Shown here piece after piece: positions 21,286 to 63,865 of a stretch of DNA of 64,000 nt. The translations under genes and the position numbers were made by a program. Source of the stretch: Oligoflexales bacterium. GTDB lineage: Bacteria > Bdellovibrionota_B > Oligoflexia > Oligoflexales > Bog-1112. Location of the stretch: assembly GCA_045105515.1 (NCBI GenBank), contig JBGCDR010000131.1, forward strand, positions 12,858-76,857, read 5' to 3'. Every line of letters begins with the position of its first letter. Position 1 is the first letter of the stretch. Under the pieces are notes generated by a model. The model was not told the origin of the DNA, made no database searches, and saw nothing but the letters and a program-made list of their open reading frames with translations.

Positions 21286-21347
21286 ATATACTCCTTTATA
21301 TGTCATCCCAGCGCTGAAAGCACGTAGGGGGATCCTTTCCAAGCTAA

Positions 21348-21951: not shown

Positions 21952-22671
21952 TCACAAAGTTAGAGTCGCATTGTGATAATTCTTGAATTTCAATGAGTCA
22001 TTTATTAGTAATCGATTGCTTACTTGGTAGAAGAATTTAGGTTGATCACTGTTGAATAATTTCCGTTCAATATCCATTACTTTACTACAAATCGACTGAC
22101 TATCTGAAATGAATAAAACGAGTGGATAAATGTCAGAATTATAATATTTTCTTAAAAAGCCATCATAGCGCTGTTCCATTTTAAGGGTGCATTCATACTC
22201 AATCGGTAACTCAACTGCTTCAGACTGGATAATTGTAGTAACGATTGCATCAGAATTTAGTCTGCATGCTTCATTAGTACCCCATGTCTGGATCTCATTT
22301 TCGGTAGCATAGTGCTTAGTCATATTTGAGTTCAATAAACTATGGCGAATATCTACCAGAGCAATATCATGATGCACCGAATCTGATTTAATTTCGATTC
22401 GTTTTTCATTCCCCTTTCTAACAAAATTCTCAAATGATTTTTTGGTATTGGAGACAATTCTTTTTCCTTTTAGTAGTAAGCGGCTTCTCTGGATATGTAC
22501 CAACCTATTGTCTTCTAATTTTCTGATTCTATTACCAAGGCTTTCTTGAGTAATATCACTGAAGACATCTCTGGTGATCTGCTCATAGGTAGCTGCTTTA
22601 ACAGCATGTAAATATTTGAAGAGCAAAATATCTCTTTCATCGAGGTACATTCCCACAATTTGTTGTTTCAT
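21952..22671 (-). CDS. MOBC-type (replication-relaxation, PD-(D/E)xK) relaxase
   Basis: N-terminal wHTH, HDIALVD, and D-x16-EYECTLKMEQRY matching the MOBC signature D-x6-17-ExE-x3-K-x3-RY; coupled to the FtsK gene. Confidence 0.7.
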   Translation of the reverse strand: MKQQIVGMYLDERDILLFKYLHAVKAATYEQITRDVFSDITQESLGNRIRKLEDNRLVHIQRSRLLLKGKRIVSNTKKSFENFVRKGNEKRIEIKSDSVHHDIALVDIRHSLLNSNMTKHYATENEIQTWGTNEACRLNSDAIVTTIIQSEAVELPIEYECTLKMEQRYDGFLRKYYNSDIYPLVLFISDSQSICSKVMDIERKLFNSDQPKFFYQVSNRLLINDSLKFKNYHNATLTL

Positions 22672-24203
22672 GTGTTCTCCTTAACTGCCCCGTATGCCCT
22701 CTTGTGTTGTTTTGCCACCTTGCTCTTTTCTGCCTCACCCAACATCGGACTAAACAGCTTCTTTTTCTCCTTCGCAAATTGATCTACAATTCCTAGGCAT
22801 CTAGCTTTGATCGTCTTCTCATCAATAAAAGGAGCCTGAACGATCACTTTCTTCGTTCCACAGTTCCAAACCCCTCGACCTGGTATATCAGGGAGGTCAC
22901 ATGCATCCTTTGTTCCCAGGACAATCAAGCTGCCTTGGAGGGAATTCGCCCGAAACGCCATACGTCCTGAAATATTCTCAGACACCGAGGTAGGGATAAC
23001 CTGCCGATCGAGCTTTTGTGTGGCAAGAATCAAATGGATGCTGGCGGCTCGAGACAGCTTAGAGATGGAATCAGCAAGCTGCCTTGCTTCAAGTGCCGAT
23101 TGGTATTCTGGATCATTTCTGGGCCGATTCATATACAGAACAGAGCATTCATCGACACCAACCACGATCCTATCCTTGTGGTCTTTCTCTGGAATGATTT
23201 GCTTACGGCTCTTGGCCTCCAGATACCTAAATCTGTCTTTCATCTCCTTTTCCACTCGCCTCAAAACCACCAAGGCATCGTCCATGGTCTTTACTACCTT
23301 GACGTTGGGACATTTCACAAAGTCGATCATCTCTACGCCGCCTTTGAGATCAATCAGATACATTTGCAAATGTGGTGATGATTCCAAGAGCCCCATAATA
23401 ATTTGCTTAAATTGAACCGATTTACCACTGCCTGTGGTGCCTGCAATGATCATGTGGGGCAATTCATCGATGCGCTGTGTAACGACTCCTTCACCCGACA
23501 TTCCAAGGAAGAATCCCTCCTTTGGCAAGACATGAGATGCAACAAGGTCCGTGTATTTTACTTTCTCTGGAAATTTCATCGTACTAAAGGTTACAACGAT
23601 CTGCCCTTGGTGCCTGCCATGTTTGATGGATTCGACATTTGTTCTAAAGAACGACTCCAAATGGCTCTTCTTATCGTTGAAGTTTTCGAGACTGACGCCA
23701 TTTGCATCAAAAATATAGCTCTTGCGATGTTTGTCATGCCTTTCGATACGAATCAGTTTTGGTGTGTCTTTCCTACCGTTCTGTATCCCAATCATTTCGA
23801 AAAGCTTCTGGTACTTCGTTCTCGTAGCTCTTGCCCACCCCCCTAAAACAAGAACTAACGGGCTGAAGAACATAAGGAACAGCACAATCCAGTGATACAA
23901 GATGGCAATTTCATACATCCACCCGAGGCGCTCCATTGTGATAAGATTTGGCTCTAATTCATGAATCCAAACGATATGGATGCCATTTGCTGCTAGATAA
24001 AAACTGTAATAAAGCAAAGCTATAAGGCTACCCCAGGAGAATGGGAACCACCTAGAGATGAGAGATTTTAGAAAAACCCACGTACCTATACTCGATACAA
24101 CAATGAATTCTTGTAGGAACTCATTGACTGCAATTGTTAGTGCATCAGGCTGAGACCCTGATTTGTTTTGAAACTTGTCTTTGCTATTAGGATATTTGTC
24201 CAT
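22668..24203 (-). CDS. FtsK/SpoIIIE-type ATPase, probable coupling protein
   Basis: N-terminal TMs; PHMIIAGTTGSGKS, IDLKGG, VVGVDE, RAASIHLILATQ, PGRG. Confidence 0.85.
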   Translation of the reverse strand: MDKYPNSKDKFQNKSGSQPDALTIAVNEFLQEFIVVSSIGTWVFLKSLISRWFPFSWGSLIALLYYSFYLAANGIHIVWIHELEPNLITMERLGWMYEIAILYHWIVLFLMFFSPLVLVLGGWARATRTKYQKLFEMIGIQNGRKDTPKLIRIERHDKHRKSYIFDANGVSLENFNDKKSHLESFFRTNVESIKHGRHQGQIVVTFSTMKFPEKVKYTDLVASHVLPKEGFFLGMSGEGVVTQRIDELPHMIIAGTTGSGKSVQFKQIIMGLLESSPHLQMYLIDLKGGVEMIDFVKCPNVKVVKTMDDALVVLRRVEKEMKDRFRYLEAKSRKQIIPEKDHKDRIVVGVDECSVLYMNRPRNDPEYQSALEARQLADSISKLSRAASIHLILATQKLDRQVIPTSVSENISGRMAFRANSLQGSLIVLGTKDACDLPDIPGRGVWNCGTKKVIVQAPFIDEKTIKARCLGIVDQFAKEKKKLFSPMLGEAEKSKVAKQHKRAYGAVKENT

Positions 24204-49845: not shown

Positions 49846-51639
49846 AGAAAGAGCCTAGCCAAGAGGCTACTAAGACGAGATTATAAATATTTTGTGGCAT
49901 TAGACTTGACCCAGCCAAGAAGCCTTTACCATGATTAACTAATCAGTTTCTCCCATGATATTTTTTAAAACTACAACGATTAAGCTGTATGTTATGCTCA
50001 TCATATCTTTCATTTGAGTCCTTTCGCTCATTGTTAGACGCTTGGTGTATGCAGTTCCCTTTTCCGCATAGGGATGACTACCTGGAAGGATATTTCGACG
50101 GTCATTGATTTTTCCCAATAATTCCACTAGCTGCGGATGGTGTTTTGCAAAACTCTTTCCAGGGTCTAGGAAATGACCATATTTTTCTTTAAATGACACA
50201 TTATTTTTATTCTTTAAAGCTATTGCTCCTGGAATATTTTTCTGATTCAACACGACTTGAATATTATAGATTAGTAAGTGATTGAAACTGTTCATACATC
50301 CTAACCATTTGTCGCGAGATGAATCGAAACAAACATTAGCTTGCTTTAGTAAACTTACAGCATGACCATAATCAGAACCTAGTAGGGTTTTCCACTTTTT
50401 TGTTGGATCGGTTTTAAAGTGCTTCTTCAAAATGATGGAAATAGGGTCACGTTTTTTCGAAGGTGTACCACAGATGCCAAGTTCCGAGAACGTCGATGCT
50501 ACTTGTGAATTGTGAATCGCACTAGTAGGGAACGATATATTTAGACGAGCCAGATTGGAGGATAACATAATTCCTGGTTCAGGAAGACTTCTAGATAGAA
50601 AACGTTTGACTATAGGAGTCTCCTGCCCAAAATATTTATCATTTATAAGAGGAGCTAGAATCGCTTGTATCAAGGCATAATTTTCATAAAGGAGCCAGTT
50701 TGTTAAATTTGTTCCATAGATATTATCATGGCAGACAAGGAAATTATGAATACCAAGCCTTGCTGAGAACGAAACTTTTCTTTCTTTTAATAAATCGGTA
50801 GCTCTTCTTCTTAGGGTTGTGCGATCGCCTGCTGGTATATGCTCGAGGGCTACAGATAAAAATTGCCAACACTGCCCTTGGACGTAATCATAAGGACTAC
50901 TTTTGAGGTTTTCTTGGATGGCTAAAATCACGGACTTAGTCGAAATATGATTAGTTAAGAAAGAGAGAAATGCATCCACATGTTCTGGAAGAGACTGCCA
51001 GATTTTAAGAACTTTTAAACGAATTTTTGATGAAGGCATGCTGTGAAAAAGTACATATCGCAATTGTGATTTATTGATCAACATCCCAGTTTCGTTAAAA
51101 CATCGATCAAATATCTCCTCTGCTTCCCCCTTTTCTAATTCCTTTTTCGTGGATATATCACGGCTAGCTCCATCAGGACTAGGCTCGTGGTAGGAGAAGT
51201 CTGGAGCATTAGAAATATTGAGTACTTCGAATTTTTTCGATTGAGGAATTAGTCCAAGGTCTCTACAGAGGATTTCTAGGTAGACCACTGATTTTCTGGC
51301 TGCATTTTCAGTTTTCCCAAATATTCTCACATCATCGACATATCTGCAGTAAGTGGTAGCATTCATTTTTTCATCTATTGGCATTAAATAGTATTCTGCC
51401 AATAGATCTGATGTAATTGGCCCTTGTGGGATGCCATGAGATTTTCCATCACTTGTTTTTTCGCCTGTCCATCTACTTAGACATTTATAGATGAATGAAC
51501 CTAACTCATCTGTAGCCTTTCTAGGAAGTAAGCATCTAACTAAAATATCGTGAGAAATGGTGTCGTAAAATGCAGCTAGATCAAAATGAACGACCCATTT
51601 ATAGTCGAATTTGAGACGATTTTGGATTCGAGTACAATA

Positions 51640-52689
51640 GAGTCTTTGCATAATTCAGAAACTCAGTCATAGCAATGGCGCGACACTAATTTATTACTTA
51701 GTGACAATTCTTTCCTAATTTACTAAAATGACTCGAATTTTGACTGGGAGTACCAATGATAAGCTTCGAAGACATATTAGATAATCCAAAAAAATTGAAC
51801 ACAATGACAGGTGTTTGCATTGAAGAATTTGAGATAATTTTCGAAGAATTTGAGGTTGAGTTAAACCAAATCAGAAATCCTAATCGAGTGAAATCAGGTG
51901 CTCCTTCTAAATTAACGGTAAAAGAAAAATTATTGATGGTTCTTATTCATTATCGACACTATCAAAATTTTGATGTTATTGGTGTTATTTTCAATGTGGA
52001 TGGTAGTACAGTTAAACGATGGTTAGATAGCTGTGAAAGTGCTATAGAGGCCATTTTAGAAAAAAAAAACTTCTCCCATTTGATACCTCGGAATCAAGAT
52101 CCGAGCTTAAAAATGCAATTAACTCCCAGACAGAAATCTATATCGATGGCACTGAACAGCCTATAAGACGTCCTCAGAATTCAAAAGAGCAGAAAGATAA
52201 TTATTCCGGAAAAAAGAAGAAGCACACATCAAAAATTCTTATTTTGACGAATCAATCTAAAGAAATTATTGGGATGACTCCTGTTTATGTTGGAAAATCT
52301 CATGATTTCTCTATGTTTAAGAAAGAGGAAATATCCGACCTTATCCCACCTAAAACCCTTGTCTATGTTGATACTGGCTTCGAAGGTATTGATAAATTAG
52401 TAGAGAAATCTCAGGTTAGAAAACCAAAAAAGAAGCCGAAGTCAAGAAAGTTAAATGGTGGAGAACAGCATGGAAACCGAGTAATATCGAGCAAACGCAT
52501 AATTGTTGAGCATGCTATTGGTGGCTTCAAAAAATTTAAAATAACAGCAAATATATTTCGAGGCATTACAAAAACTATGGATAAAGCATTTAGAATTGCA
52601 GCTGGGCTATGGAACCTTCATTTAAAATTTAAAGCTGGAGAGCTTACTTGATAAGGCGGCGGCTTGTTTGTTGAATTATGCAAAGAGTC
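51640..52689 (+). mobile_element. IS5-family (ISL2-like) element, 1050 bp
   Basis: 18-bp IR GAGTCTTTGCATAATTCA / TGAATTATGCAAAGAGTC (1 mismatch); TA duplication at 51638-39 and 52690-91. Confidence 0.92.
51756..52651 (+). CDS. Transposase in two ORFs joined by a -1 frameshift at A10 (52060-52069)
   Basis: HTH in orfA; the -1 frame gives IDGTEQPIRRP, YSGKKKKHT, HD, VDTGF, RIIVEHAIG. Confidence 0.88.
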
Positions 52690-53225
52690 TAATATTTTTG
52701 ATAAGATTTTCGCCAATTCCGGAAAAGGAAAATGCTTTGGGTGTCTTCTATATAATTGCTATAGGTTTTTTTATCTTGAACTTGCTGACGGGAAACCTGA
52801 CATTTCTTTGCATAAAGATTCGCGATCGCTTGTAAAACGATTTGATCCTCTAATGTCAATAGAGTGATTGGACGTTGAAGCCCAGAAGGTTTAGGTATGT
52901 AAATTCGTGTTGGCTTGCTAGGTTCGTAGCTTCGAGTTTTAATAGCTATACTTAGATTTGAGATGTGATCACTTAATGCAATCTCATATATGCCATATTG
53001 TTCACGAAAGTATTTTTTATACTGATGGTTAAGCCCCGTAGAAATCCGTTGCCAAGCTAATTCCAGATTTTTTTTTGAGCCGAGATTCGACAAATCCATG
53101 TGTCTTTAATTTCCTTTTTTTGTTTGATTAATTTATCGGAAAAAATGAATGAATATTTAGCAGATTACAAGATTGGTGGCCCTTTTGTCATTTTGATGTC
53201 AGCAGGTGTGGCACCAATAAAGAAC

Positions 53226-53247
53226 AGTCTAGCCAAGGGGCTAGACT
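53226..53247 (-). terminator. Hairpin downstream of the primase gene
   Basis: AGTCTAGCC-AAGG-GGCTAGACT followed on the minus strand by GTTCTTTATT. Confidence 0.5.
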
Positions 53248-53308
53248 CCTATTATGATGAAAAAGTAGAGCGATCTACAGGTATAGGGCATACTTTAGTC
53301 GGTGAGCC

Positions 53309-55606
53309 CTATACCAACCTTAGACTGGGGTGCAAGCGCACCACCTCAAATCGACGCCCTGTTGGCGGAGACATGACTTCTACCCTGGCCCAGCCATATC
53401 GTTGCAGCGTTTTCAAAGCACCATCAAGCTCCTTCATCGAAGCTAAATTCTTCCATCCATGGCGATAAACGTCGCGACAACGATCAAAGTCTCGAACAGC
53501 GCCAGATTTGATTCTTTCGAGTAATTTGCGCCCAGACACTACTTCAGGTTCTAGATACTCGCCATATGCTTTGCAGGCGTGCAGCTCCAAGAATTCGCAC
53601 CAGCGGATGGCAAGCTGAGTTGAATCTTTGGAAATTTCCTCGGGATAGTCACTGGAGTCCTCTAGGTGAGTCATCATTTCAAAGATCAGCGCCAGGCTAG
53701 GCATAAGGGAGCGGTATTTAGACAAGTGATTTTCCATAATTGAGGACCCTGTGGCCGATAAAAGTCGGATTTCGAGCCCTTCATGCCATGCGTCTGCGAT
53801 CGTTTGACCGTCTGCTGAAAACCGTATTTTGTGGCGCTTTGTTTCATCATCAACTCTTTCAGGTAATGGCAAATCAGCAAGCTTTGCAAAAGTCCTCTCC
53901 ACTAGCTCAGCTGCGGCGTTGTTGGGAGCTCGGTCAATACGCTTCCAGTATTTGCGCTTCTCTGGACACAAAAGGATCTGAAAGCGTTGCAGTAGCCCGT
54001 CATCGCTCTTCCCTCCCTTTGCTAGGGCTGCAACATAGGATTCAAATTTGGTGGGTTGTAGACCCCCTAGAACCGACAAGCAAAGCCCATCTACGAACAC
54101 AGTTCCTCGGCCAATACGATCCATGCTGTAAGGTGAGTCACCATTCCAGGATTCGAGGAAGAATTCGCGGTCACCTTCCCTGCCTGATTTGAACATGGTT
54201 TCCATCCAACCACTAAGTTCATCGCGGTACAAAAGCAAACCTTGGGGATTTTCCTGGAGGATTGTGAGCATTTTTTCAATCGTTGGGTCATTCATCATGT
54301 AGCGACGCTCAGTTACTTCAAAGTTATCTTCAAATGCCTTTAATGCCTTTTCTAAAGCTTCTTTTTTCTCTCCAATAGCAGTTTGATTCCCTCCTTTGAC
54401 TGCCGATTTAAGGGCATCTTTAAGAGCATCAATCTCAGCTTTGGCTACTGTTTTTTCGGCTTCAACTCGCTTACTCTCTTGCAAAAAATCCTCTCGTGCT
54501 TTCACTGCAAGATTCTGTAATGGGCGCAATATGGCAGCCATAGCAGGTGATTTCATCGATCCAGGAGGAGCAATAAGACAACCCCATAAATTTGGAATGA
54601 CCTTCCAATCGTCTTTTGTTTTAGGGTAAATCGCTACTTTGCGACCAATGACAGAGGATAATGTTACAATTGCTGGTCCTGCTACAAATTCAAGAGGCAC
54701 CTGCATACGCTCTGAAATATCACTGCACCAGGCTCTTAGCGACGTTGGTAACATTTCGAGATTCATTTCTGGTGCAACAACCTCACTAGGAAGTGAACAT
54801 GGCTCCTTCCAGTTTTTCTCTTGGTAGCGACCAATACTATTACTTATTTGTTGAACCTCTGCTTCAGATAGTGGTGGTTGACATAGATTTTGGTTGATGG
54901 CTCCCAGAGTTGAGGTAATTGAACCAGAACCAAATCCCTTAGATTTTAAAAAACCACCTATACTCATGAGCGATGCATTGCGTCCTCCTTCGGCAAAAGT
55001 TTCTTTGCTTGGTATTGCAAGCTTTTTGGGATTGGGGTTGCCTAAAATCAGAGATAAAAGCCAGGCTGGTAAATCAGCAATGTTAGTATCTTCAGAGACC
55101 CATGAATAGGTGGCCTGACTAGCATGAACACTTGGTGGTGCTACGATGTAGCCACCATCTCCCCGCACATCAACACCGGGTTTTAAGTTGGTCTTGTTGG
55201 GTATTTTTCCTCCTGGGTGACGGAAGTAGTAGTGCCAACCATCACCGCCCGTTTTTACCTTGAGGGTTTCGGGTAGCTCACCAAACTCTGCTTCAAGCTC
55301 CTTCAGTGATTGGTTACCTCCGTGTCTAGGGTCAATATCAATCACTACCAAACCTGATTCCGAGCCGGTGAGAATACCAATATTTGCTGCAGGACTTTCC
55401 CTCCACCAGTTCAAAACTGTAGCCGCTCCCAGGGTTGCGTTTTTGAGGCCATTGGGGGTCATTGGGTGTTTTGCAATACTACTGCAGCTTGGTTTTCTGC
55501 AACTGCACTGGCCGTCTGTTACAGGGTAGTGGAGAGGGAGTACCGGCCACCCCTTCCCAGCGAATTTTGAAGCCCACTCTGCATTAGTTTTCATGGAATC
55601 TTGCAT
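53309..55606 (-). CDS. Bifunctional primase-polymerase fused to PriCT-like and DUF3987 (helicase-like) domains
   Basis: GWPVLPL, AKHP, NIGILTG, VVIDIDPRHGG, HYYF, DVRGDGGYIVAPPS; EGGRN; PNLWG...PPGSMKSP, RDELSGW, DGLLQRF. Confidence 0.9.
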   Translation of the reverse strand: MQDSMKTNAEWASKFAGKGWPVLPLHYPVTDGQCSCRKPSCSSIAKHPMTPNGLKNATLGAATVLNWWRESPAANIGILTGSESGLVVIDIDPRHGGNQSLKELEAEFGELPETLKVKTGGDGWHYYFRHPGGKIPNKTNLKPGVDVRGDGGYIVAPPSVHASQATYSWVSEDTNIADLPAWLLSLILGNPNPKKLAIPSKETFAEGGRNASLMSIGGFLKSKGFGSGSITSTLGAINQNLCQPPLSEAEVQQISNSIGRYQEKNWKEPCSLPSEVVAPEMNLEMLPTSLRAWCSDISERMQVPLEFVAGPAIVTLSSVIGRKVAIYPKTKDDWKVIPNLWGCLIAPPGSMKSPAMAAILRPLQNLAVKAREDFLQESKRVEAEKTVAKAEIDALKDALKSAVKGGNQTAIGEKKEALEKALKAFEDNFEVTERRYMMNDPTIEKMLTILQENPQGLLLYRDELSGWMETMFKSGREGDREFFLESWNGDSPYSMDRIGRGTVFVDGLCLSVLGGLQPTKFESYVAALAKGGKSDDGLLQRFQILLCPEKRKYWKRIDRAPNNAAAELVERTFAKLADLPLPERVDDETKRHKIRFSADGQTIADAWHEGLEIRLLSATGSSIMENHLSKYRSLMPSLALIFEMMTHLEDSSDYPEEISKDSTQLAIRWCEFLELHACKAYGEYLEPEVVSGRKLLERIKSGAVRDFDRCRDVYRHGWKNLASMKELDGALKTLQRYGWARVEVMSPPTGRRFEVVRLHPSLRLV

Positions 55607-55729
55607 TCTTACCTCCGTTGGTGATTGCTCATCGATAATATCTAATGTGATACTATTGTCGATGCTCGCTCCACTTTCGTGAGGAGTCAAGCATCGGCCT
55701 AGAGCAATTTTTTGGGATGGAGGTATCGA

Positions 55730-56173
55730 ATGCCAAATTCAGACATAGTTTTCGATCAATACGAATCTTTGCTAAAAAGGATTGGGGAGAATATCGCACG
55801 AGTCCGAATGGCTCGTGGGCTAACCCAACGGGAATTAGCTAAGGCTGTCGGTAAAAGCCAAGCTATAGTTGCTAAGGTTGAAAGATACCCTTCTCGGGAT
55901 ATTTCATTTCGTTGTTTCTATGAAGTTTGCCGAGGACTCCCAGTTTCAATGGGTGATATGGTTCGTGAGGCTGAAAAAGAACTTGAGCTCCATGAATTGT
56001 CTCGTGAACCCAGTAAAATTAGTGAGCGCATGGAGACAATGACCCAAAGGCTGAACAGCCTACCTGAAGAAGAGCAAGTTTGGATGGCCGAGATGATAGA
56101 AGGCTTGCTAAAACGCACCCGTCTTCCGCCACAGAATAATCGCCGAAGCGATAAGAACCATCTCATGGTTTAG
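55730..56173 (+). CDS. XRE-family regulator divergent from the primase
   Basis: IGENIARVRMARGLTQRELAKAVGKSQAIVAKVER; imperfect IR CATCGATAATA/TATTGTCGATG at 55630-55664. Confidence 0.85.
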   Translation: MPNSDIVFDQYESLLKRIGENIARVRMARGLTQRELAKAVGKSQAIVAKVERYPSRDISFRCFYEVCRGLPVSMGDMVREAEKELELHELSREPSKISERMETMTQRLNSLPEEEQVWMAEMIEGLLKRTRLPPQNNRRSDKNHLMV

Positions 56174-56216
56174 GGTGGACACCCCAAAAAGAGCCAATTT
56201 CGCGTATAGGGGAGAA
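56172..56216 (+). promoter_or_regulatory. Element-specific motif, copy B
   Basis: AGGGTGGACACCCCAAAAAGAGCCAATTTCGCGTATAGGGGAGAA. Confidence 0.55.
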
Positions 56217-56461
56217 GATTTCAATACCCTAATGCTCAATACCCAAAATCCACTCGCAGAACTGACAGAACTCCCCTCGGTTCCGATTGTTTCATATTTA
56301 ACAGTTGGTTATATTGATTCTGCTTGAGGTTCCAAATCTTCCCCACTTTCCGACAAAACTAGAGACTGGATTAGTCCGAACGGTAAAGTGGTTAGAGGTG
56401 GAGAAATTTCTTTGATATTTTGTAGTGTTGTAAAAAAGGTAAATTTGTTGAACCAAATAGC

Positions 56462-56484
56462 TTGAGTATGACGTGGCGTCATAC
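56462..56484 (+). promoter_or_regulatory. MerR/TipA-type operator
   Basis: -35-like TTGAGT overlapping dyad GTATGACG-TGG-CGTCATAC upstream of the merR gene. Confidence 0.65.
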
Positions 56485-56526
56485 CCCAAGTTAGCTGCAG
56501 TTCATTAACAACACATAGGAGATCAT

Positions 56527-57300
56527 ATGAACTACACAGCAAAAAAACTTGGGGACTTATCTGGAATTAGTGTTCGCACCTTGCATTGGTACGATAAGAT
56601 CGACCTTCTCAAACCATCTCACATTGGCGACAACGGGTATCGCTATTACGGTCGAAAAGAGTTGTATTTGTTGCAGCAGATACTTTTTTTCAGAGAACTT
56701 GATTTTGGACTCGATGAAATCAAAAACATCATCCACAAGGAAGATTTTAATCAAGCTGATGCTTTGAAGGCTCACAAAAAGAGGCTGGAACAACAGCAAC
56801 ATCGAATTAAAACTTTGATCGAAACCGTTGAATCAACTATTGAAGATCTTAAAGGGGGCAAGAAGGCGCACGACAAAGACCTTTATAAAGGTTTCTTTAG
56901 CTGGTCTGATGGCAAGGGTGAATCAAAAGTTTTTGTAGGGAGAGCCACTGAAGGTGCTAGTGAAAGCGAGAAAACCTTTCTAGAAAGCGCAAAGGATGTA
57001 GGACAGGCTTCTTGGAGTAAGGAAGAATGGGAAAAATTTGGAGCTAAAGCTGATCGTATATTTAGTGCTCTTTCCAGCTTGGAACAGGCTGGTGAAAGCC
57101 CACAAAGCGAGGCAGTTCAAAAACTAATTGCTGACCATTATGCTTATGGAAGTACTTTGCATCAGATGGACAAGAAGGTGTATCGGGCTTTAGCAGATTT
57201 AATCCAGTCACGACCAGCATTTCGTAAGCAAGTGGAGGCATATGGCAAAGACTTGCCAGAGTTTTTGTCAGAAGCCATGCTGATTTGGATTAAGAATTAG
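56527..57300 (+). CDS. MerR-family regulator with TipAS-like C-terminal domain
   Basis: SGISVRTLHWYDKIDLLKP, NGYRYY, LQQILFFREL; P.SEAVQKLI..HY. Confidence 0.9.
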   Translation: MNYTAKKLGDLSGISVRTLHWYDKIDLLKPSHIGDNGYRYYGRKELYLLQQILFFRELDFGLDEIKNIIHKEDFNQADALKAHKKRLEQQQHRIKTLIETVESTIEDLKGGKKAHDKDLYKGFFSWSDGKGESKVFVGRATEGASESEKTFLESAKDVGQASWSKEEWEKFGAKADRIFSALSSLEQAGESPQSEAVQKLIADHYAYGSTLHQMDKKVYRALADLIQSRPAFRKQVEAYGKDLPEFLSEAMLIWIKN

Positions 57301-57451
57301 CTGTTTGGGCCTTTAGAGGGACTTTTCGTCCCTTTGGGGCATTGAAGTAGGGCCAATTTTAGAGATGGTCTACCTCCTGTATCTATTTGATATTACATGA
57401 AATAATTTAATATTTTGAATTCTACTCAAATATTGGTATAATAGGCGGGAT

Positions 57452-57781
57452 ATGAGTACTTTTAAAAACATCGTCATTATGCTCTTTTGCTGGACCCTAG
57501 GTAACTCGGTCTATGCAAGGACTTCTGATCTTTTTTCTCAAAAAGATCAGCAATTCATTGACCCTAGTTTGGCAAAGATTACAGCTCATTTTGAGTTTAA
57601 AACTGACGACGACGTCACTAGCAACTCTGGTTCACCTTGTGGAGCGAGTGATAGTTGTTCTCATGTTAGCTTATCCTTCTTTCCAAGTCAGGTTTATAAC
57701 TTTAGCCTTTTTGATGGCAATCACATCAAGAAGTCCTATCTGTTCATAACATCAGGAACAAGTCCTCCTCAGTCTGTTTAG
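57452..57781 (+). CDS. Small hypothetical secreted protein
   Basis: Signal-like N-terminus; CGASDSCSH; C-terminal PP. Confidence 0.45.
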   Translation: MSTFKNIVIMLFCWTLGNSVYARTSDLFSQKDQQFIDPSLAKITAHFEFKTDDDVTSNSGSPCGASDSCSHVSLSFFPSQVYNFSLFDGNHIKKSYLFITSGTSPPQSV

Positions 57782-57865
57782 TCAATTTAACAATTTAAAT
57801 TAAAACAGATTTATTAATGCTGCATTCTCGCATGGCGTGCGCGTGTGCATTTTGAGGAGAAATTT

Positions 57866-58525
57866 ATGAATTTCAAAAAAATAAAATCCGAGGTGCTATC
57901 TCTCGGAGTTATATTTCTTTCAGTATGTGCTTTTAAGTCCAGCTTTGCCTGTAATTACACAGTTCCAACAGGATCGATGAAATCAACCATAGAACCTGGT
58001 GATAAATTGCTTGTCAATAAGATGGCTTACGACTTTCGGATTCCTTTTACAAAAACAAGGCTTTTTGAGTACTCCACCCCAAAAAGGGGAGAGGTGATTG
58101 TTTTTGAGTGCCCCTACGACTCATCTATGACTTTTGTCAAAAGGCTCATTGGTTTGCCGGGAGATACAATTGAAGTGAACCATGGCTTTATTAGACTAAA
58201 TGGTAAAGCTCTGGACATTTCAGTTAAGGATCAACAAAAACTGAGAGATATTCTCATATCAGGAGGATTCTATAAAGAGACTCTTGACGGAAAGGAATAT
58301 ACCGTTAGGCGTATTCCATCTCACCTTGATAGGACTCCACCAGTGAAGGTCACTGTTCCAGATGGACACTACTTTGCGATGGGTGATAATCGAGGTGAAA
58401 GTGGTGACAGTAGACATTGGGGATTCGTTCCAAGAGAAAATATCTGGGGTAAAGCTAAATTCGTTTATTTCTCTTTTGAATGGCCGAAGATCCGCTGGGA
58501 TCGAATCGGCCTCGGCTTTTCTTAA
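57866..58525 (+). CDS. lepB: Signal peptidase I (S26)
   Basis: PTGSM, FVKRLIGLPGD, MGDNR.ES.DSR.WGFVP. Confidence 0.92.
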   Translation: MNFKKIKSEVLSLGVIFLSVCAFKSSFACNYTVPTGSMKSTIEPGDKLLVNKMAYDFRIPFTKTRLFEYSTPKRGEVIVFECPYDSSMTFVKRLIGLPGDTIEVNHGFIRLNGKALDISVKDQQKLRDILISGGFYKETLDGKEYTVRRIPSHLDRTPPVKVTVPDGHYFAMGDNRGESGDSRHWGFVPRENIWGKAKFVYFSFEWPKIRWDRIGLGFS

Positions 58526-58535
58526 GGAGGATGTG

Positions 58536-59012
58536 ATGAAGAAAGCGTTCTACTTTATTGCTATTTTGGGAACTGTTTTTGCCATAAGTCGAGTGGTAGC
58601 CGAGCCATACCACCTATCAGGAGACTGTATGGAGCCGGGTTTTAAGGATGGTGACTTATACTTCTTGAACCATCTTGCTCCCTATGTAAGAGATTACAAA
58701 ATTGGCGATGTTGTGCTTTACAAACATGAAGATAGGGTCTGGATTTCTAGAGTTGTTGCCAAAGGTGGTGAATTTATCCGAATCGAGGAGGGGAAGATTC
58801 TGGTTAATGGCTAATCCATCAAGGAACAAAAGGGCATTGAGCGAAGCTGGCCTGGTTGGGAGTACGGAACCTTCGGTTTAAACGAAGACCTTCATGTACC
58901 GACAGGACATTTTTTCATGCTCTCAGATAAATTATCTGCACAGCATGATGATAGCCGTGTTTTTGGCACTATTTCAAAGCAGAATGTCCTTGGGCTTGTT
59001 TGGTCGTTGTGA
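58536..59012 (+). pseudogene. Second S26 peptidase homolog with an in-frame TAA at 58812-58814
   Basis: SGDCMEP, WISRVVA; after the stop the same frame reads VPTGHFFMLSD...DDSRVFG to TGA 59012. Confidence 0.8.
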
Positions 59013-59345
59013 ATATTTGCAGTTCTGGCAACTAAGCGTCAGTAAATCATGAATCCCATATAACCCATACTATACAAGGTAAAATGGAGTTTTGTCAGTT
59101 CTGCAGGTGGATTTTTGCAATAAGCAGATAGGGGAATCTTACAGACCTATTTCTTGGGTAGGGTTTTTACAAAACCTGTTGCAAGTTCAATCCATTTCGC
59201 AATGGAATCTTTTCTTTTTGTGCCATCAGCATCGATGTAAGCAGTCCATAAAATTGGACCGATTCTTTCATTTGACCACTGATAATTCCGATTGCATCCA
59301 AGCTCATTGCGATCTCTCCAATATTTCAGATATTCCAAATTCTTT

Positions 59346-59603
59346 TTAAGATGATTGGAAGGTTTCAAGGCCATCTTGAATTCCATATTGCTTGCATAAG
59401 CGCAAAAGTTCTCGCCGTCCAAGCTCGGGAATACGACTTTCCTGATTGACCCATCTTCCGATGGTCGATTTGGCGACACCAAGTTTTGCTGCTAACTTTG
59501 CATGTCCGCCAACTTTTTCAAAGAGTGGCCCCCAAGGAGCAGGTGCAACAACTGGTCGTCCGACAGCCCGTTTTGTTGAGTTCAAAGAAGCGCCTCCCAG
59601 CAA
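59346..59603 (-). CDS. Small Cro/XRE-like HTH protein
   Basis: GGHAKLAAKLGVAKSTIGRWVNQESRIP; start uncertain. Confidence 0.7.
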   Translation of the reverse strand: MLGGASLNSTKRAVGRPVVAPAPWGPLFEKVGGHAKLAAKLGVAKSTIGRWVNQESRIPELGRRELLRLCKQYGIQDGLETFQSS

Positions 59604-59665
59604 AAGATTATGTCATAGATCAATTGTACCCATATCGGGAATAATTTTCTATCTGACTTCCTTGT

Positions 59666-59694
59666 ATAATTATACCCAATACAGGTATAATTAT
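59666..59694. promoter_or_regulatory. Perfect 11-bp inverted repeat (operator candidate)
   Basis: ATAATTATACC-N7-GGTATAATTAT between divergent genes. Confidence 0.65.
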
Positions 59695-59695
59695 T

Positions 59696-60124
59696 TCAGA
59701 TGTCTGGAGCAAGGTCTGATGTCGTTTCAGATCTGGAAAGCAATCAGATTAGGAGGTTAGAAATGTCTGGAATTCATCTGGTAGCGTCTGAACTAGATCT
59801 GAAAGGTTCGCCCAAGGTCTTTTCAGATCTGATCAAATATCTGAAAGCAGGTCTGGAGCAATCTCAGACGCTTTCAGATCTGGAGAGTCTGATGCAGCAT
59901 CTGGCAGAGCATCTGAAGATCAAAACATATAGTTCAGATCAAAAACGAGACCTGAAGGCGTTGCGGCAGAAGGGCTATGACCGCCGCGCAAAACTTCGCA
60001 AGTTATCATCAGAAGATCTTGCTCCAGATCTGGAGAAGGGTCAGATCTCCGAGTCAGATCTTTCTCGGGCTATCAGATCTGAAGAATCCCCATCAGAAGT
60101 AGTTAATCCCCCAAAACAATCAGA
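59696..60124. repeat. Dispersed CAGATCTG / TCAGA / TCTG array
   Basis: 12 GATC in 59730-60079, five of them in full CAGATCTG palindromes, plus many half-sites. Confidence 0.9.
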
Positions 60125-60854
60125 GGAGGCCAAAATGCCAGTCCATGAAATTTCTGTCGCTAAAACTGCTGACCTTCGTCCTATGGGTCAAGTTCCTCTA
60201 GTAGAAGGTTTCAAGGGAGTGATCACAAATATTAACGGGGCACAATTAGCGAGAATGCTCCCTCAGCTTGTTCTGCTAATATCAGCAAGCGTGTTAGTTG
60301 CTTGGTTTCTTTGGCTCCAGTCGGTCGAACTTTATGAGGCTAGTGGATTCGCCAACCCTGGCTTGGTTTCTTTTGGCGGTATATTGATGGTCGTCGGATT
60401 TGCTGGATTTCATGCGGCTTATCGCACCAAGCTGGCCCTCCTCTGCTGCATTTATGCTGGCGGTTATGAAGCATACTTCATAGCTTCAGGGACTTTTTCT
60501 GATGAGTTGAATTCAAAGGTGGCCGATAAAGCGATCACTGAGAAATTAGCTTGGCATCAAGAGCGGCTTGATCGCGCAAAGATGAGCTATGATCGAGTCA
60601 ATTCGCGCTATGATGATCCGGCAGATAAAATGCATCAAAATTCGTGGTATAAGAAGAAGCATGTAGACTCAGCCTGGCAGGTATACTCGCAAGCTCAACA
60701 GTCGATGGAAAAGCAACAAAAGTGGATTCAGACAGAGGTTGCCAACTTCGATCACACTGGATGGCTGAAAATATTTTTCCGTATGGGCCTTGTTATTTTA
60801 TTTATGCTTTTGGTTCATCGGCTAGGTAGCAATCTCCGTCACGCAGCAGATTAG
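59763..60854 (+). CDS. Hypothetical membrane protein (3 TM, coiled coil, TM) whose 5' part overlaps the repeat array
   Basis: AGGAGG RBS before ATG 59763 and a second GAGGAGG before ATG 60136. Confidence 0.65.
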   Translation: MSGIHLVASELDLKGSPKVFSDLIKYLKAGLEQSQTLSDLESLMQHLAEHLKIKTYSSDQKRDLKALRQKGYDRRAKLRKLSSEDLAPDLEKGQISESDLSRAIRSEESPSEVVNPPKQSEEAKMPVHEISVAKTADLRPMGQVPLVEGFKGVITNINGAQLARMLPQLVLLISASVLVAWFLWLQSVELYEASGFANPGLVSFGGILMVVGFAGFHAAYRTKLALLCCIYAGGYEAYFIASGTFSDELNSKVADKAITEKLAWHQERLDRAKMSYDRVNSRYDDPADKMHQNSWYKKKHVDSAWQVYSQAQQSMEKQQKWIQTEVANFDHTGWLKIFFRMGLVILFMLLVHRLGSNLRHAAD

Positions 60855-60902
60855 AATATCAGTTAAATACAGATGAATTTTCGGATATATGGAGGTACTC
60901 AA

Positions 60903-61670
60903 ATGATAGTTTGCCCAATGTGTGATGCATCAGTCCATAAACTCAAAACCAACAGTCATGTTTTGCTAAAATGGATGAAACGTCAAATTATGGGGCGCTC
61001 AGGAAGAGTGCTGAAGTTGGATTTTTCCATGAACACAGAAGATGTAGAGCAAGATCTCTTAAAAGCTGATATTGTTTGTGATCGATGCGAAAACTCATTT
61101 CAAAAAGATGATGACTATCTCGCAAAAATAGTGCTACCCGAAAATAGTTCAAGTGTTGAAAGAAGATCGATTGAGATAGAGAATTACGAGTCAGGACATG
61201 AATGTTGGGCAGGGTTAAATTTTATTCTGTTTCAACGGTTCGTGTTGGGAGTCATACTTCGAATGGAGTTTTATCAAAATATTAAGAACGCAACATAGCT
61301 CATCAGGCACTCAGATGATTTATCAAGAATAAGAAAACTATACTGGGCAAATGACAACGACGACACAATACCAATATGTGTTTCAAGAATGGTCAATGAA
61401 ATAATTTCTTATCCACGAAATAATACAATTAATGATTTGTTTGTTTATCAGTTTCAAGGCCTATGGTTTGAATTCTTTTCCTTTTGTGACCCTAATGTTG
61501 CTGAGGATACTTTTTTCAAAGTGAGATTAAAAAAAGATGGCTCATTGGCCGTGATGGCTGAAATGAGGGATGCAGAAAGACAGCAGGATTTAGCCAAGAA
61601 ATCACAAAATATTGATATGACAACGAGCCAACAAAAACGAATCAAGAATCTCAAGAAACTTGATAAATAA
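60903..61670 (+). pseudogene. Zn-binding (HNH-like) hypothetical protein with one internal TAG (61296-61298)
   Basis: CPMC...NSHV...CDRCENSF; reading frame continues into the 61389-61670 ORF. Confidence 0.55.
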
Positions 61671-61701
61671 CGGGCTCATGGATTGCATTAGGAACCCTAA
61701 T

Positions 61702-62121
61702 CTATTCAATAACCATCCTTTTCGAAATTATAGAGAAGTCACTTGCTGAGATTTCAAAGAATCCACGCCGTATAGTGAGTCCCCAGTTTGGAGTCTTTTT
61801 GATAAACTCTAGGCAGTCCATCATTTCTTGAATTGGTACATTTTTAGTATTGCAATAGCGAATATTTCGACGATAAGGATCAAAGCCAGGAAACTGCTCA
61901 ATCTGGTATGGGATATTGTCAATAACTTCACCGATTGCTGTGAAACTCTTACATGGTTCTGGGTGATTCATGCGAATTTTTGGGGAATAGTAGATAATCC
62001 AATCTCCCATATCAAGTTTTTTCACTGGCCAAATTTTACCATGACAAAATTGAGCAAAACCTTCGGCTTGGGCTACTCTAACATGTTCTTCAGATACCAC
62101 CCCAATCCAATAACGATTCAT
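61702..62121 (-). CDS. EVE-domain protein
   Basis: YWIGVVS.EHV, GFAQFCHGK, GDWIIYYSP, FTAIG, RRGFFEI. Confidence 0.88.
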   Translation of the reverse strand: MNRYWIGVVSEEHVRVAQAEGFAQFCHGKIWPVKKLDMGDWIIYYSPKIRMNHPEPCKSFTAIGEVIDNIPYQIEQFPGFDPYRRNIRYCNTKNVPIQEMMDCLEFIKKTPNWGLTIRRGFFEISASDFSIISKRMVIE

Positions 62122-62594
62122 CGTTTTCTCTCTCCTTCGCTTTCTTCGGCATCGACAAGGGACCTGAATGCCGAAATTAAGTAAGATCGATGTTGCTCAG
62201 ATAGAGTTCCAAAAAATCTTTCGTCGATGGATTCAATGACTGGAATAAGAGCAGATATTTTCTTGAGACCTTTTTTTGTTATTAGAACGACCTTAACTCG
62301 GGTGTCTTTTTCGTGCTCTTTTCTTTTCACAAATCCTTGTTGTGTTAGTTCCCTTAAGGCTTTGGAAACTGTCATTTTCTCAAGTTTTGACTGAGCAGCT
62401 ATGTCGACTTGGGTTGCTTCATGATTATGCTCTGTGAACCATAAACTTACAGCTAATACGACAAACTGGGAATGAGTCATTTTATGTTTATCAAGCTCTG
62501 CACGTATCCTTTTTTGCCATAGCATGGTTGTTTGCCATAGTAGGAGTCCAGGACTATCCTCGGGTTGCTCATATCCGAAAGTAGAATCAGTCAT
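62118..62594 (-). CDS. MarR-family regulator
   Basis: SPGLLLWQ, THSQFVVL, MTVSKALR, DTR...IT.KG. Confidence 0.9.
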   Translation of the reverse strand: MTDSTFGYEQPEDSPGLLLWQTTMLWQKRIRAELDKHKMTHSQFVVLAVSLWFTEHNHEATQVDIAAQSKLEKMTVSKALRELTQQGFVKRKEHEKDTRVKVVLITKKGLKKISALIPVIESIDERFFGTLSEQHRSYLISAFRSLVDAEESEGERKR

Positions 62595-63015
62595 TTTGCT
62601 TCTCCTTGATTCTATCAATAAGAGATTCTATTTCGTCTGGTACCGAACTAGCAACATTTCGTCCCACCAACAAGAACCAGAGGAAGGAAAAAACTCCTGA
62701 GACTTGAAGAACGTTAGAAATTTTGACCCCACCAACGATAGGTACAACTAAATGTTTATCGATCATCTTAGCGCCAGGGAATTTTGTGCAATCAGTAAAC
62801 GATCTTCCTTGCTCGACCTCTGAAATTTCAATTTCGACTGCTTTCATATTCGTTGGTTTGAGAGTGAAGCGAACTCCTTCGGCAAATTCTCCGTGTAATT
62901 TGCAATATTCTAGGTCGGCATGCCACTTAGGCCAGTTTTCAATATCAACCCACTCACTCCAAACTTGTTCTGGAGATATTCCATTAATTTTCTTGCTGTA
63001 TGTTCGTTTCCACAT
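62587..63015 (-). CDS. SRPBCC/polyketide cyclase-family protein
   Basis: PEQVW..WVDIENWPKW, SFTD.TKFPGA. Confidence 0.85.
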   Translation of the reverse strand: MWKRTYSKKINGISPEQVWSEWVDIENWPKWHADLEYCKLHGEFAEGVRFTLKPTNMKAVEIEISEVEQGRSFTDCTKFPGAKMIDKHLVVPIVGGVKISNVLQVSGVFSFLWFLLVGRNVASSVPDEIESLIDRIKEKQND

Positions 63016-63025
63016 ATCTAGCTCC

Positions 63026-63066
63026 CACATAGTAAACATATTTATAGTAAATATGTTTACTATGTG
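63026..63066. promoter_or_regulatory. Perfect 19-bp inverted repeat, probable MarR operator
   Basis: CACATAGTAAACATATTTA-TAG-TAAATATGTTTACTATGTG. Confidence 0.75.
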
Positions 63067-63331
63067 TCAACATGGTTTTTGAATTTAATTAGATAATCGT
63101 AAAAATGCCAGCACTTCAGATGGTGCGATTGATAGTCTGCATAAAACGAGGGCAGTTATAACCGCCTGAATATAATACTTTAAATTGGACTGTTGACTTA
63201 AGCTGAAAAATTAGCTAAATTTGGCGCGATAACCCTATATGAAGGACGCTAGACGCCAGTGAAGTAATGAAGTAATTCTTATCCCAAAAAATCAAATAAC
63301 AAACTTTGATTAATTTCCAGGATAAGAACAT

Positions 63332-63865
63332 ATGTCTAGTTTCATCAAGCTACAAAATTTACATTTCAGTTATGACAATCTCTCAGCAGAACTCATTGCT
63401 GGCATATCCGTTGGTTTCCACCATGGTTGGACTTCCCTTTGTGGTCCTAATGGGTGCGGCAAAACGACACTTCTGAAGTTAATCTCTGGCGAGTTGAAGC
63501 CAAATTCTGGGTCAATTGCAGCTCAAGGCAGCATTGTTGCTATCCCTCAAAGCACCGAGTTTGCTCCATCAGGCCTCCATGGTTTTCGCCTCGATTACCA
63601 GAAAAGTGCAATTAAACTTCGTAATCATCTGAAAATTGGTGATGACTGGTATGAACGTTGGCCAAGCCTAAGCATTGGGGAACGAAAACGTTTGCAAATT
63701 GCTGTGGCGCTAGCTTCAAACCCCGATGTCCTTTTAGTTGATGAACCCACCAACCACGTAGATGCTGAGACTAAGCAAGTAATCCTAGAGGCTTTAAATA
63801 ATTTTCGTGGAGTTGGTGTCATCATCAGTCATGATCGTCTTCTACTAAACGAACTCTGTAGCTGA
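63332..63865 (+). pseudogene. Truncated ABC-F-like ATPase (first NBD only)
   Basis: GPNGCGKTT, LSIGE, LLVDEPTNH, ISHDR, then an abrupt stop; no TM partner. Confidence 0.7.

Follow-up and report, generated by a model that had tools for sequence, protein, structure and literature searches.

The array-bearing locus

The window analysed here, a stretch of 64,000 nucleotides from the genome of an Oligoflexales bacterium (GenBank assembly GCA_045105515.1, contig JBGCDR010000131.1), carries a conjugative element on which a dense array of short sequence words is written over the promoter and the 5' part of a gene for a membrane protein. We refer to this array locus as W, to its own genome as G000 and to the homologous loci as L001-L024; a half-site is the hexamer ATCTGR or its complement YCAGAT, and a cluster is called dense if a 450-bp frame holds at least 12 half-sites. 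The membrane-protein gene (59763-60854, + strand) encodes 363 amino acids (aa) and starts at ATG 59763 (MSG...), behind AGGAGG at 59751-59756; this start is used by all full-length homologs, and not the in-frame ATG 59700 at which the original prediction had placed the beginning of the gene. Divergent from it lies the gene for a small Cro/YdaS-like helix-turn-helix (HTH) protein (59346-59603, - strand), the likely start of which, by our own reading, is TTG 59585 behind GGGAGG. Between the two genes, the perfect 11-bp dyad ATAATTATACC / GGTATAATTAT (59666-59694, no strand) was found as predicted, with arms at 59666-59676 and 59684-59694 that are 100% complementary and 7 nt apart. The dyad holds two opposed -10 hexamers, TATAAT at 59686-59691 for the + gene and ATTATA at 59669-59674, which is TATAAT on the - strand. 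The + promoter was omitted by a consensus promoter scan because its -35 hexamer (TTGTAT) is poor.

The array comprises 21 half-sites within positions 59651-60082 and falls into two clusters, neither of which is assigned a strand. Cluster 1 (59651-59940) has 15 hexamers, three fused as the palindrome CAGATCTG, and covers the promoter flank, the 5' untranslated region and codons 1-59, which encode the N-terminal tail and helices 1 and 2 of the product. Cluster 2 (60014-60083) has six hexamers, two fused as CAGATCTG, and covers residues 85-107 of a disordered linker for which the predicted local distance difference test (pLDDT) is <50 and the sequence of which is unconserved between homologs. The helix-3 DNA between the clusters is free of sites, bar one hexamer at its 5' edge (59934). 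Units of 18-32 nt are common to both clusters and recur at 66-85% identity. The first site, ATCTGA at 59651, precedes the dyad, contrary to the earlier view that the array begins right after it.

Each of the five palindromes (59728, 59824, 59875, 60025 and 60074) is a fused pair of half-sites, and the array holds five of the six CAGATCTG copies in the window and five of the 80 in the 6.29-Mb host assembly that was scanned. Twelve GATC tetranucleotides lie between 59730 and 60079 (350 bp), compared to about 1.4-1.8 expected, because the 64-kb window contains 320 and the genome rate is 3.92 per kb; along with these, AGATCT occurs nine times in 420 bp. The word TCTGRA/TYCAGA reaches 16 copies in one 400-bp frame, the window mean being 0.78, and many sites of W are TCTGR lacking GATC. 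On the + strand, successive TCTGR words are separated by gaps of 12, 17, 34, 11, 10, 11, 30, 12, 12, 27, 9, 12 and 12, and both orientations are represented (17 forward, 14 reverse). Tandem Repeats Finder, at a score of at least 30, returned no rows over the array. The initial description of an irregularly spaced array with five full palindromes, many half-sites and an excess of GATC, being neither a tandem repeat nor a CRISPR, was thus borne out. It had also placed the sites in several codon phases; more than one phase is indeed occupied, but one register dominates (forward sites, eight in phase 1 and one in phase 2; reverse sites, five in phase 0 and one each in phases 1 and 2).

In the whole assembly, dense clusters occur at four places only, on contigs C131 (the window), C4, C244 and C64, and each sits at the start of a complete paralog of the membrane-protein gene, at its 5' end, so that the anticipated enrichment of the word relative to the genome is real.

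Selection at the DNA level

When the peptide encoded by codons 1-125 of the W gene was fixed and the codons were redrawn from window usage, 2.46 +/- 1.47 half-sites were expected, whereas 16 are present, a count reached in 0 of 2000 resamples; CAGATCTG was seen four times versus 0.08 expected. The C-terminal part of the gene has half-sites at expectation. Permuting synonymous codons within the region yields only 8.6 +/- 1.8 half-sites, and again 0 of 2000 permutations reach 16. The sites are fitted into the frame as NAT-CTG-R codons: CTG accounts for 11 of the 18 Leu codons among codons 1-125, compared to 157 of 1445 in the long open reading frames (ORFs) of the window, where it is the rarest Leu codon, and an excess of CTG is apparent in most other loci as well.

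The DNA compared comprises 13 distinct loci with a 5' end, from Oligoflexales-type metagenome-assembled genomes, two metagenome contigs and the four paralogs in G000. Peptide-fixed resampling over 12 loci reached the observed counts in 0 of 1000 draws for nine loci, in 3 of 1000 for L016 and in 12 of 1000 for L005, L015 being without sites; the transmembrane (TM) parts are at expectation in 10 of the 12 loci, with L005 and L016 as exceptions. At two aligned positions, nearly every locus has NCA GAT CTG, the first residue varying among S, P and T. Furthermore, the words extend into non-coding DNA. The 190 bp upstream of the W gene (-190 to -1) hold five copies versus 0.51 in dinucleotide shuffles, none of 500 of which reach five; the same stretch holds seven to nine copies in L009, L003, L004 and L016, and in 9 of the 13 loci the count is reached by at most 5 of 500 shuffles. 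Because peptide-fixed resampling fails to give the observed counts, copies exist in non-coding DNA and NCA-GAT-CTG is kept across S, P and T, selection is acting on the DNA rather than on the peptide, as originally proposed.

An explanation without any DNA function would invoke a repeated peptide motif, [ST/P]-D-L-E, combined with a codon habit or a recent duplication. The conservation of D-L at the two aligned positions, the dominance of one codon register and the recurring 18-32-nt units are all in line with such an origin, yet it is close to refuted by the resampling results (0 of 2000 in W, 0 of 1000 in 9 of 12 loci), the rarity of CTG in the ORFs of the window and the non-coding copies. 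Moreover, the codon ahead of D retains its CA even though the encoded residue changes. The converse pattern, in which homologs conserve the peptide and lose the palindromes, would have spoken for the peptide, but L015 alone retains the peptide (F-S-E-L-E, gag cta) without the word, and this locus also counts against the peptide motif as the source of the word.

Conservation of the array and a switch of its word

A clear array is present at the same place, over the promoter and 5' end of the gene, in 11 of the 13 loci; L005 has a weak one and L015 none. The consensus is (C)AGATCTGR(A), with a preference for TCTGA in W and L009 and for TCTGG in L003, L004, L008 and L012; the word in the linker of L008 is CAGATATCTG and that of L016 is ACAGATCTGT. 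By contrast, all four loci of two genomes of genus g2 (L002, L021, L018 and L022) carry ATTTGG/CCAAAT in the same places, which amounts to a single C-to-T change in the core. The expectation that homologs have either the same palindrome or a different word at the same position thus holds for the ATCTGR and ATTTGG loci, respectively. In the protein tree, the g2 proteins L002 and L018 are not sisters, and both fall in one clade (96/93) together with ATCTGG loci from other genera; judging from these sequences, the core word therefore seems to go with the host genus and not with the protein.

This switch bears directly on a further explanation, namely, that the array is a GATC/AGATCT methylation or sequestration switch that uses the candidate N6_N4 methyltransferase of the element (20533-21342), in the manner of oriC/SeqA or agn43/OxyR. 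The 12 GATC and nine AGATCT in 420 bp would fit, as would the presence of this beta-class methyltransferase gene on the element. However, ATTTGG contains no GATC, and methylation of GATC therefore cannot be the general mechanism that had been envisaged. In a Dam/SeqA-type system, GATC itself would be conserved, but the g2 loci keep their arrays as ATTTGG and many sites in W are TCTGR without GATC. Given, in addition, that GATC occurs at the expected frequency genome-wide, we consider a methylation switch highly improbable.

The array is tied to the gene's own promoter. No array accompanies three operon-internal homologs that lack a promoter of their own, namely, L015, immediately downstream of PrimPol, and two distant ones, L019 and L024. 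Reading the sequences by eye, we found a site 2-9 nt after the -10 hexamer in W, L009, L003, L004 and L001, which in W takes the form TATAAT-tatt-TCAGAT, and W, L009, L003 and L004 have copies upstream of the + promoter. The linker cluster (cluster 2) is present in W, L012, L008, L002, L021 and L018 and absent from L001, L007, L003, L004, L009 and L016.

The gene unit itself is conserved: as predicted for a unit of HTH gene, array and membrane-protein gene, tblastn located the small HTH gene upstream of the membrane-protein gene in 10 further distinct loci (L001, L002, L003, L004, L005, L007, L008, L009, L012 and L021), so that it adjoins the array in 11 loci including W. The backbone of L016 differs, with parB-parA followed, divergently, by the array and the membrane-protein gene and then by a gene for a 1129-aa Toprim/SF3 primase-helicase; no small HTH gene was found within 380 bp. 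Because of this different backbone, the membrane protein is the only product common to all array-bearing loci.

The membrane protein and its internal start signal

In the AlphaFold2 models, which were built on shallow alignments (18 and 12 sequences) and have a mean pLDDT of 76, the product consists of a disordered tail (residues 1-17), a three-helix domain (20-84), a disordered linker (85-143) and a membrane part. The three helices (20-33, 37-51 and 58-84) are predicted at pLDDT of about 85-93, and we read the membrane part, from model and sequence, as four putative TM helices, TM3 and TM4 being connected by a long helical hairpin. Helix 3, encoded by codons 58-84 (59934-60014, + strand), contains the conserved basic stretch LKxLRQKxYDRR and has a net charge of +7, ranging from +4 to +8 over 12 homologs. 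Within the N-part, invariance is limited to R68, Q69, Y72 and D73, all of them in this helix. The N-terminal peptide is, accordingly, not the poorly conserved sequence that had been supposed, and the sites are confined to DNA for the tail, helices 1-2 and the linker.

The 363-aa protein has no Pfam, NCBIfam or PHROG family, and its own family is small: a search of 1.84 billion proteins at E <= 1e-3 gave 135 representatives, of which some are the membrane part alone (234-254 aa) and others the N-part alone, which may be fragments. A profile of the N-domain produced nothing below E 0.39 among the PDB sequences, and the full-length model has no structural match at E <= 0.001. The best feature matches in the ESM Atlas (0.87-0.89) are viral clusters of 226-260 aa, which lie under the 0.9 bar and are a lead only. 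Prediction of a two-copy complex of the N-domain scored 0.30 against a mark of 0.42, which gives no verdict and was used neither way.

An internal translation-initiation region (60113-60137, + strand) lies within the linker: AAAACAATCAGAGGAGG is followed after 5 nt by ATG at 60135-60137, and GAGGAGG at 60123-60129 precedes this codon, which places the start one position before the 60136 given at first. The second ribosome-binding site (RBS) and ATG are conserved, in that a Shine-Dalgarno (SD) sequence of at least 5 nt with an in-frame start is found inside the linker in 9 of 12 loci. Such combinations number 10 in 1172 linker codons versus one in 2178 TM codons and one in 744 N-domain codons, and AAAACAATCAGAGGAGG resembles the main initiation region, AAAGCAATCAGATTAGG, at 82%. 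Because internal SD and start recur in the linkers, the gene probably makes two isoforms, a long one and a short one of 239 aa that would consist of the membrane part only.

At the main start, the stretch 59753-59782, spanning the RBS and the first seven codons (TAGGAGGTTAGAAATGTCTGGAATTCATCTGG), is identical in W and L008 despite about 40% protein identity, and the seven codons are also identical in L007; public unitigs end within this stretch. Since it holds two half-sites 11 bp apart, the conserved 'MSG' start of the family may be a DNA site in its own right.

Regulators and candidate readers of the array

The small HTH protein matches Pfam families weakly and under the curated cut-offs (YdaS_toxin, 3.5e-06; HTH_3; P22_Cro), matches the carph-isopro domain of NCBIfam (1.5e-05) and has no phmmer match in the PDB. 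The centre of the dyad, judged by eye, varies in step with the small-HTH groups (ACCC/GGGT, ACTCAT, ACTCGA and GTACG), and because of this co-variation we assign the small HTH to the dyad, its probable operator, and not to the array, although it had been put forward as an array reader. A second regulator of the element, a CI-like HTH_3 protein of 153 aa (55712-56173, + strand; Pfam HTH_3, 6e-08), has homologs in L002, L003, L004, L008, L012 and L021.

As to the reader of the array, our tentative first choice is the membrane protein itself, the N-part of which, in the cytoplasm, would act in cis; another protein encoded by the element is nearly as likely, a host factor somewhat less so, and a reader of any other kind appears unlikely. 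ParB-like genes exist in G000, but none adjoins an array. In the surroundings of 12 of the 13 loci, neither a motor of the ParM or TubZ kind nor a homolog of ParR or TubR came to light; L016 alone has a par operon, of the ParA/ParB type.

A probable protein-loading platform

Because its relatives keep the words by unusual codon choice, the DNA most likely serves proteins as a docking platform in addition to being coding sequence. We hold, with moderate confidence, that the array is a cooperative loading platform for a protein on double-stranded DNA, which represses the promoter of the membrane-protein gene and probably also serves as a centromere-like handle of the element; a protein-loading platform was already part of the original prediction and is still the best reading, with published parallels in stbS and pSK41 rep. 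Many copies of one sequence-specific DNA-binding protein would load on the approximately 21 half-sites, many of which are paired back to back, with adjacent protomers lined up along the same face of the helix at a pitch of 10-12 bp, in two clusters about 80 bp apart. Because one site adjoins the -10 hexamer, the bound complex is proposed to repress the promoter of the membrane-protein gene; the second cluster is placed just upstream of the internal start. The same complex would probably be the handle by which the element is partitioned or positioned, as in R388 stbS or in type II/III centromeres. The sites lie where the peptide tolerates them, in the tail, helices 1-2 and the disordered linker, sparing helix 3 apart from its 5' edge.

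The spacing may reflect such loading. Pooled over all loci, 46 of the 194 same-strand gaps of at most 60 bp between neighbours measure 10-12 bp, with further peaks at 20-21, 30 and 41, and the periodicity power reaches its maximum of 0.22 at 10.25-10.75 bp, equal to that at the codon period of 3, in spacing that is irregular and from loci that are related.

A more specific version, which we consider rather unlikely, is that the membrane protein reads its own gene: the nascent N-part would bind the array in cis during coupled transcription-translation, with the tail and the conserved basic helix 3 as candidate binding surfaces, and the TM helices would insert, so that the excised element would be tied to the membrane. 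Such a device would be a one-protein, membrane-anchored partition or positioning system with its own coding sequence as the centromere, and the short isoform, without the DNA-binding part, would tune or release the tether.

Several observations weigh against the platform. No binding protein has been found for the array, and none of three candidate proteins follows the word switch: the recognition helix of the small HTH, SKSTVGKW, is the same in L021 (ATTTGG), L008 (ATCTGG) and L005, that of HTH_3 (KNQGIVAKVEKYP) is identical in L008 and L002 despite their different words, and helix 3 of the membrane protein likewise fails to track the change. Structural comparison of the N-domain gave no Foldseek match at E <= 0.001 (best E 0.18, to MIT domains) and VIA Z values of at most 9.6, inside the range for helical bundles, with no match to a DNA-binding fold. 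The tree that separates host from lineage is weak, with 5 of its 10 inner branches open and long branches meeting. The codon period of 3 is equally strong (power 0.22) and is mixed into the periodicity signal. Because the 13 loci are interrelated, counts over them are not independent, and all sequences are metagenome assemblies. The Logan unitigs of three likely source runs end at 59753-59782, a stretch shared by the paralogs; the read depths on either side of this break agree (12.2/11.9, 36.7/39.1 and 40.9/45.8), and a contig from another study carries 59868-60128 without any difference. The remainder of the host genome shows no excess of the motif, and no host regulon is visible for that reason. 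Direct inspection of the rest of the genome also led to the rejection of a host regulon, since it turned up few extended palindromes or triple direct repeats other than simple tandem repeats in coding sequence (GGTS and SD, on C173 and C335).

The RNA of the region also folds well (z = -3.5), which leads to the possibility of an RNA-level element, that is, mRNA hairpins or sites for an RNA-binding protein, the arginine-rich helix 3 being a candidate, that would control translation from both starts. Most sites lie downstream of the -10 hexamer and would be transcribed, none of 200 shuffles folds as well as the 242-nt leader plus early coding RNA, each start codon is preceded by a cluster and a similar AAxCAATCAGA..AGG stretch, and helix 3 is strongly basic. 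A single-strand reader, however, does not predict non-palindromic half-sites in both orientations in similar numbers, and W, L009, L003 and L004 have copies upstream of the + promoter. Furthermore, the same-strand spacing peaks near the DNA helical repeat, all copies of a locus share one word without pairwise compensatory changes, and Rfam has no matches at E <= 1 in 58800-61000. We regard control at the RNA level as very unlikely and retain the protein-loading platform.

The element and its replication and transfer functions

The conjugative element in the window includes genes for an integrase (18857-20272), the N6_N4 methyltransferase mentioned above and an FtsK/TraB-like ATPase, as well as type IV secretion system (T4SS) genes for TraC, TraV, TrbI, TraU and a VirB11-like ATPase, with a weak match to TraE. 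The FtsK/EccC-like ATPase (22668-24203, - strand) is the only coupling-type ATPase recognised on the element, and its match to plasmid TraB is weak (8.9e-06; 24.5 bits against a cut-off of 800). No relaxase family was recognised among the window proteins scanned, including family-less proteins of 521 and 433 aa beside the translocase.

The array could also be thought of as a transfer site, either an accessory region of oriT or a clt-like locus, read by the FtsK/TraB-like translocase or by accessory proteins of a relaxosome. The T4SS, the TraB resemblance of the translocase and the lack of a recognised relaxase would all accord with this possibility, and in Streptomyces clt consists of direct 8-bp repeats that are described as being read by the cognate TraB (PMC4447253). 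Yet FtsK-type readers use oriented words, and the sites here are non-polar; the array is tied to a promoter and is missing where the gene is operon-internal; it lies 36 kb from the translocase gene; no nic-like feature emerged, although no search aimed at one was made; and in L016, within the 18 kb that were read, the neighbours are partition and replication genes and no transfer genes. A role in transfer thus appears decidedly improbable.

The membrane-protein gene belongs to a maintenance module with a conserved gene order: PrimPol-DUF3987 (-), HTH_3 (+), small HTH (-) and, divergently, the membrane-protein gene (+). In W, this module is interrupted by about 2.7 kb of cargo (MerR and two signal-peptidase genes). 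The replicase (PrimPol + PriCT_1 + DUF3987; 53309-55690, - strand; Pfam, 4.5e-46 and 1.6e-80) was found by tblastn upstream in L001, L002, L003, L004, L005, L007 and L015, the L002 copy being full-length. Downstream of the membrane-protein gene, neither the genes nor the DNA are conserved, the latter in 15 family genomes. Close to the replicase is a second repeat system, which comparison with the other loci resolves into a left half (CTGACAGAACT..., CCGACAAAACT; 56258-56360, no strand) and a right half (GTTTTGTCAGTTCTGCAGG; 59088-59106, no strand) separated in W by the 2.7 kb of cargo. In L001, L003, L004, L007 and L008, the halves are joined as one non-coding stretch of approximately 130-200 bp, bounded by inverted pairs of tandem TTTTGTCAG in the arrangement CTGACAAAACTGACAAAAC ... 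GTTTTGTCAGTTTTGTCAG (L001:3395-3585, L008:865-1050 and L003:3370-3590); the copies in L012 are degenerate. This stretch sits between the convergent 3' ends of the HTH_3 and small HTH genes and, in L001 and L007, also holds ATCTGG twice and CCAGAT once. From its sequence, it is a candidate origin or a candidate hot spot for cargo insertion.

These features are relevant to the alternative that the array itself is a replication origin, with the half-sites as iterons for the PrimPol-DUF3987 replicase, for which P4 alpha with its ori/crr, or the Rep boxes of pSK41, would be the models. W and seven other loci (L001, L002, L003, L004, L005, L007 and L015) have a replicase gene no more than a few kb upstream, a primase-helicase gene directly follows the membrane-protein gene in L016, and two clusters of short bidirectional repeats are typical of origins. 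An origin inside coding DNA would also have a precedent (PMC5703833). On the other hand, the types of replicase differ (PrimPol-DUF3987 versus Toprim/SF3) although the word CAGATCTG is the same, PrimPol is 57-70% identical between loci with different words, L015 has PrimPol directly upstream and yet no array, and the inter-cluster stretch is G+C-rich coding DNA with no unwinding element. The non-coding TTTTGTCAG region beside the replicase module, the sequence of which is kept in L001, L003, L004, L007 and L008, is a better candidate, and we consider it unlikely that the array is the origin.

Other features of the region are only loosely connected to the array. Another PrimPol/HTH_3 module of G000 (C169:880-1000) has a different array, with TTTTGGCAC in three direct and GTGCCAAAAG in two inverted copies around TATAAT, upstream of a gene for a 116-aa soluble protein which itself has a weak ATCTGR cluster of nine sites. 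Beside the replicase gene, a reverse-transcriptase (RT) gene with weak group-II-intron and Drt-like matches and a separate RT/maturase N-terminal fragment (49939-51651 and 52689-53099, - strand) flank a split DDE transposase (51756-52651), an arrangement suggestive of an interrupted intron or a defence RT. Within the cargo, a second, shorter signal peptidase I ORF (58362-58814, + strand) overlaps the end of the first (57845-58525), matches the S26 profile over no more than the N-terminal half and is possibly a duplicate that has been truncated. The repeat of about 140 bp at the contig end (63864-64000) recurs approximately 17 times elsewhere in the assembly, often where a contig ends. Because its read depth is 100-200x that of the flanks, it is probably the end of an insertion sequence (IS) or a group II intron. 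No tRNA gene was found in the window or in contigs C131, C4 and C244, and no direct repeat of at least 14 bp joins the integrase end to the right end. Contigs of four DNA runs contain no excision joint, the lone joint (53137 to 63864) having a side of 21 letters and falling in the high-copy repeat, and a distant-mode blastn search of a plasmid database gave no match.

Whatever its reader, the locus offers a clear natural example of two codes sharing one DNA, in which an array of sites is kept by codon choice over about 110 codons and across genera, with a word that switches within one host genus. For genome annotation, the lesson is that cis-acting DNA can reveal itself through a strongly anomalous choice of codons in the 5' part of a gene. 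Should the platform prove to be a centromere or tether, the conjugative elements of Bdellovibrionota-related bacteria would possess an undescribed means of maintenance, and the principle, familiar from RepA_N plasmids, that cis sites can lie within the gene for their reader would then apply to a membrane protein too. 'Undescribed' refers here to the blank database searches, to a literature search on carph-isopro that gave no papers and to the listed titles and abstracts on DUF3987 integrative elements and origins, which describe no such arrays; no wider search was made.

Comparison with known systems

Several known systems share one or another trait with the W locus. In the centromeres of type II and type III partition systems (parC/ParR and tubC/TubR), repeats with a 10-12-bp pitch are described as forming two sets around the operon promoter, on which the adaptor assembles a filament (10.1101/2022.04.29.490116). 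The W array likewise has its sites in two sets around a promoter and may have a similar pitch, although ParM, TubZ, ParR and TubR are missing from the vicinity of 12 of the 13 loci. Streptomyces clt is comparable in having element-specific repeated words, with an FtsK/TraB-like ATPase on the element; in clt, direct 8-bp words form a cis-acting locus read by the FtsK-like TraB translocase (PMC4447253). By contrast with these direct repeats, which serve transfer of double-stranded DNA without a T4SS, the sites of W are bidirectional and promoter-tied, and a full T4SS is present.

One-protein partition systems offer a parallel to the membrane protein rather than to the array. pSK1 Par has centromere-like repeats upstream of its own gene, which is divergent from rep. 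In RocS and pSK1 Par, one protein is described as coupling a DNA-binding and a membrane-binding part and as segregating DNA without an NTPase of its own (PMC11500499). The W protein would resemble these only if it binds DNA, as predicted; they consist of an HTH, a coiled coil and a C-terminal amphipathic helix, whereas the W protein has four TM helices and a three-helix N-domain, and no similarity between them was detected.

For cis sites in coding DNA, pSK41 rep appears to be the closest precedent. There, Rep boxes lie inside rep, within the segment for a dispensable linker between two functional domains, and are read by the gene's own product (PMC5703833). Similarly, cluster 2 of W lies in the DNA for a disordered linker. 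Unlike pSK41, however, which has four boxes and an initiator of the RepA_N type with a winged HTH, W has about 21 sites, which lie mostly on the promoter and codons 1-59, and its product is a membrane protein that belongs to no Pfam or NCBIfam family and consists of a three-helix-bundle N-domain, without a match to a DNA-binding fold, and a four-TM C-part.

The closest published design, by analogy, appears to be that of R388, in which stbS is described as two sets of five 9-bp repeats with an 11-bp cycle in the stbA promoter, functioning as both centromere and operator (10.1101/2022.04.29.490116). In both cases, short repeats are arranged in two sets over the promoter of a gene, a small HTH gene is adjacent, and the element is conjugative; the pitch of approximately 11 bp, which implies cooperative binding on the same face of the helix, may be shared by W. 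The sites of W differ in being bidirectional, often overlapping as palindromes and irregularly spaced; the array runs about 320 bp into coding DNA, the gene under its control would be that of a polytopic membrane protein, and the adjacent small HTH does not track the word switch; no sequence relation to StbA emerged, although no comparison aimed at one was made. The array of stbS is at once a repressor site and a segregation site, and it is this double role that, by analogy, we infer for the array of W.

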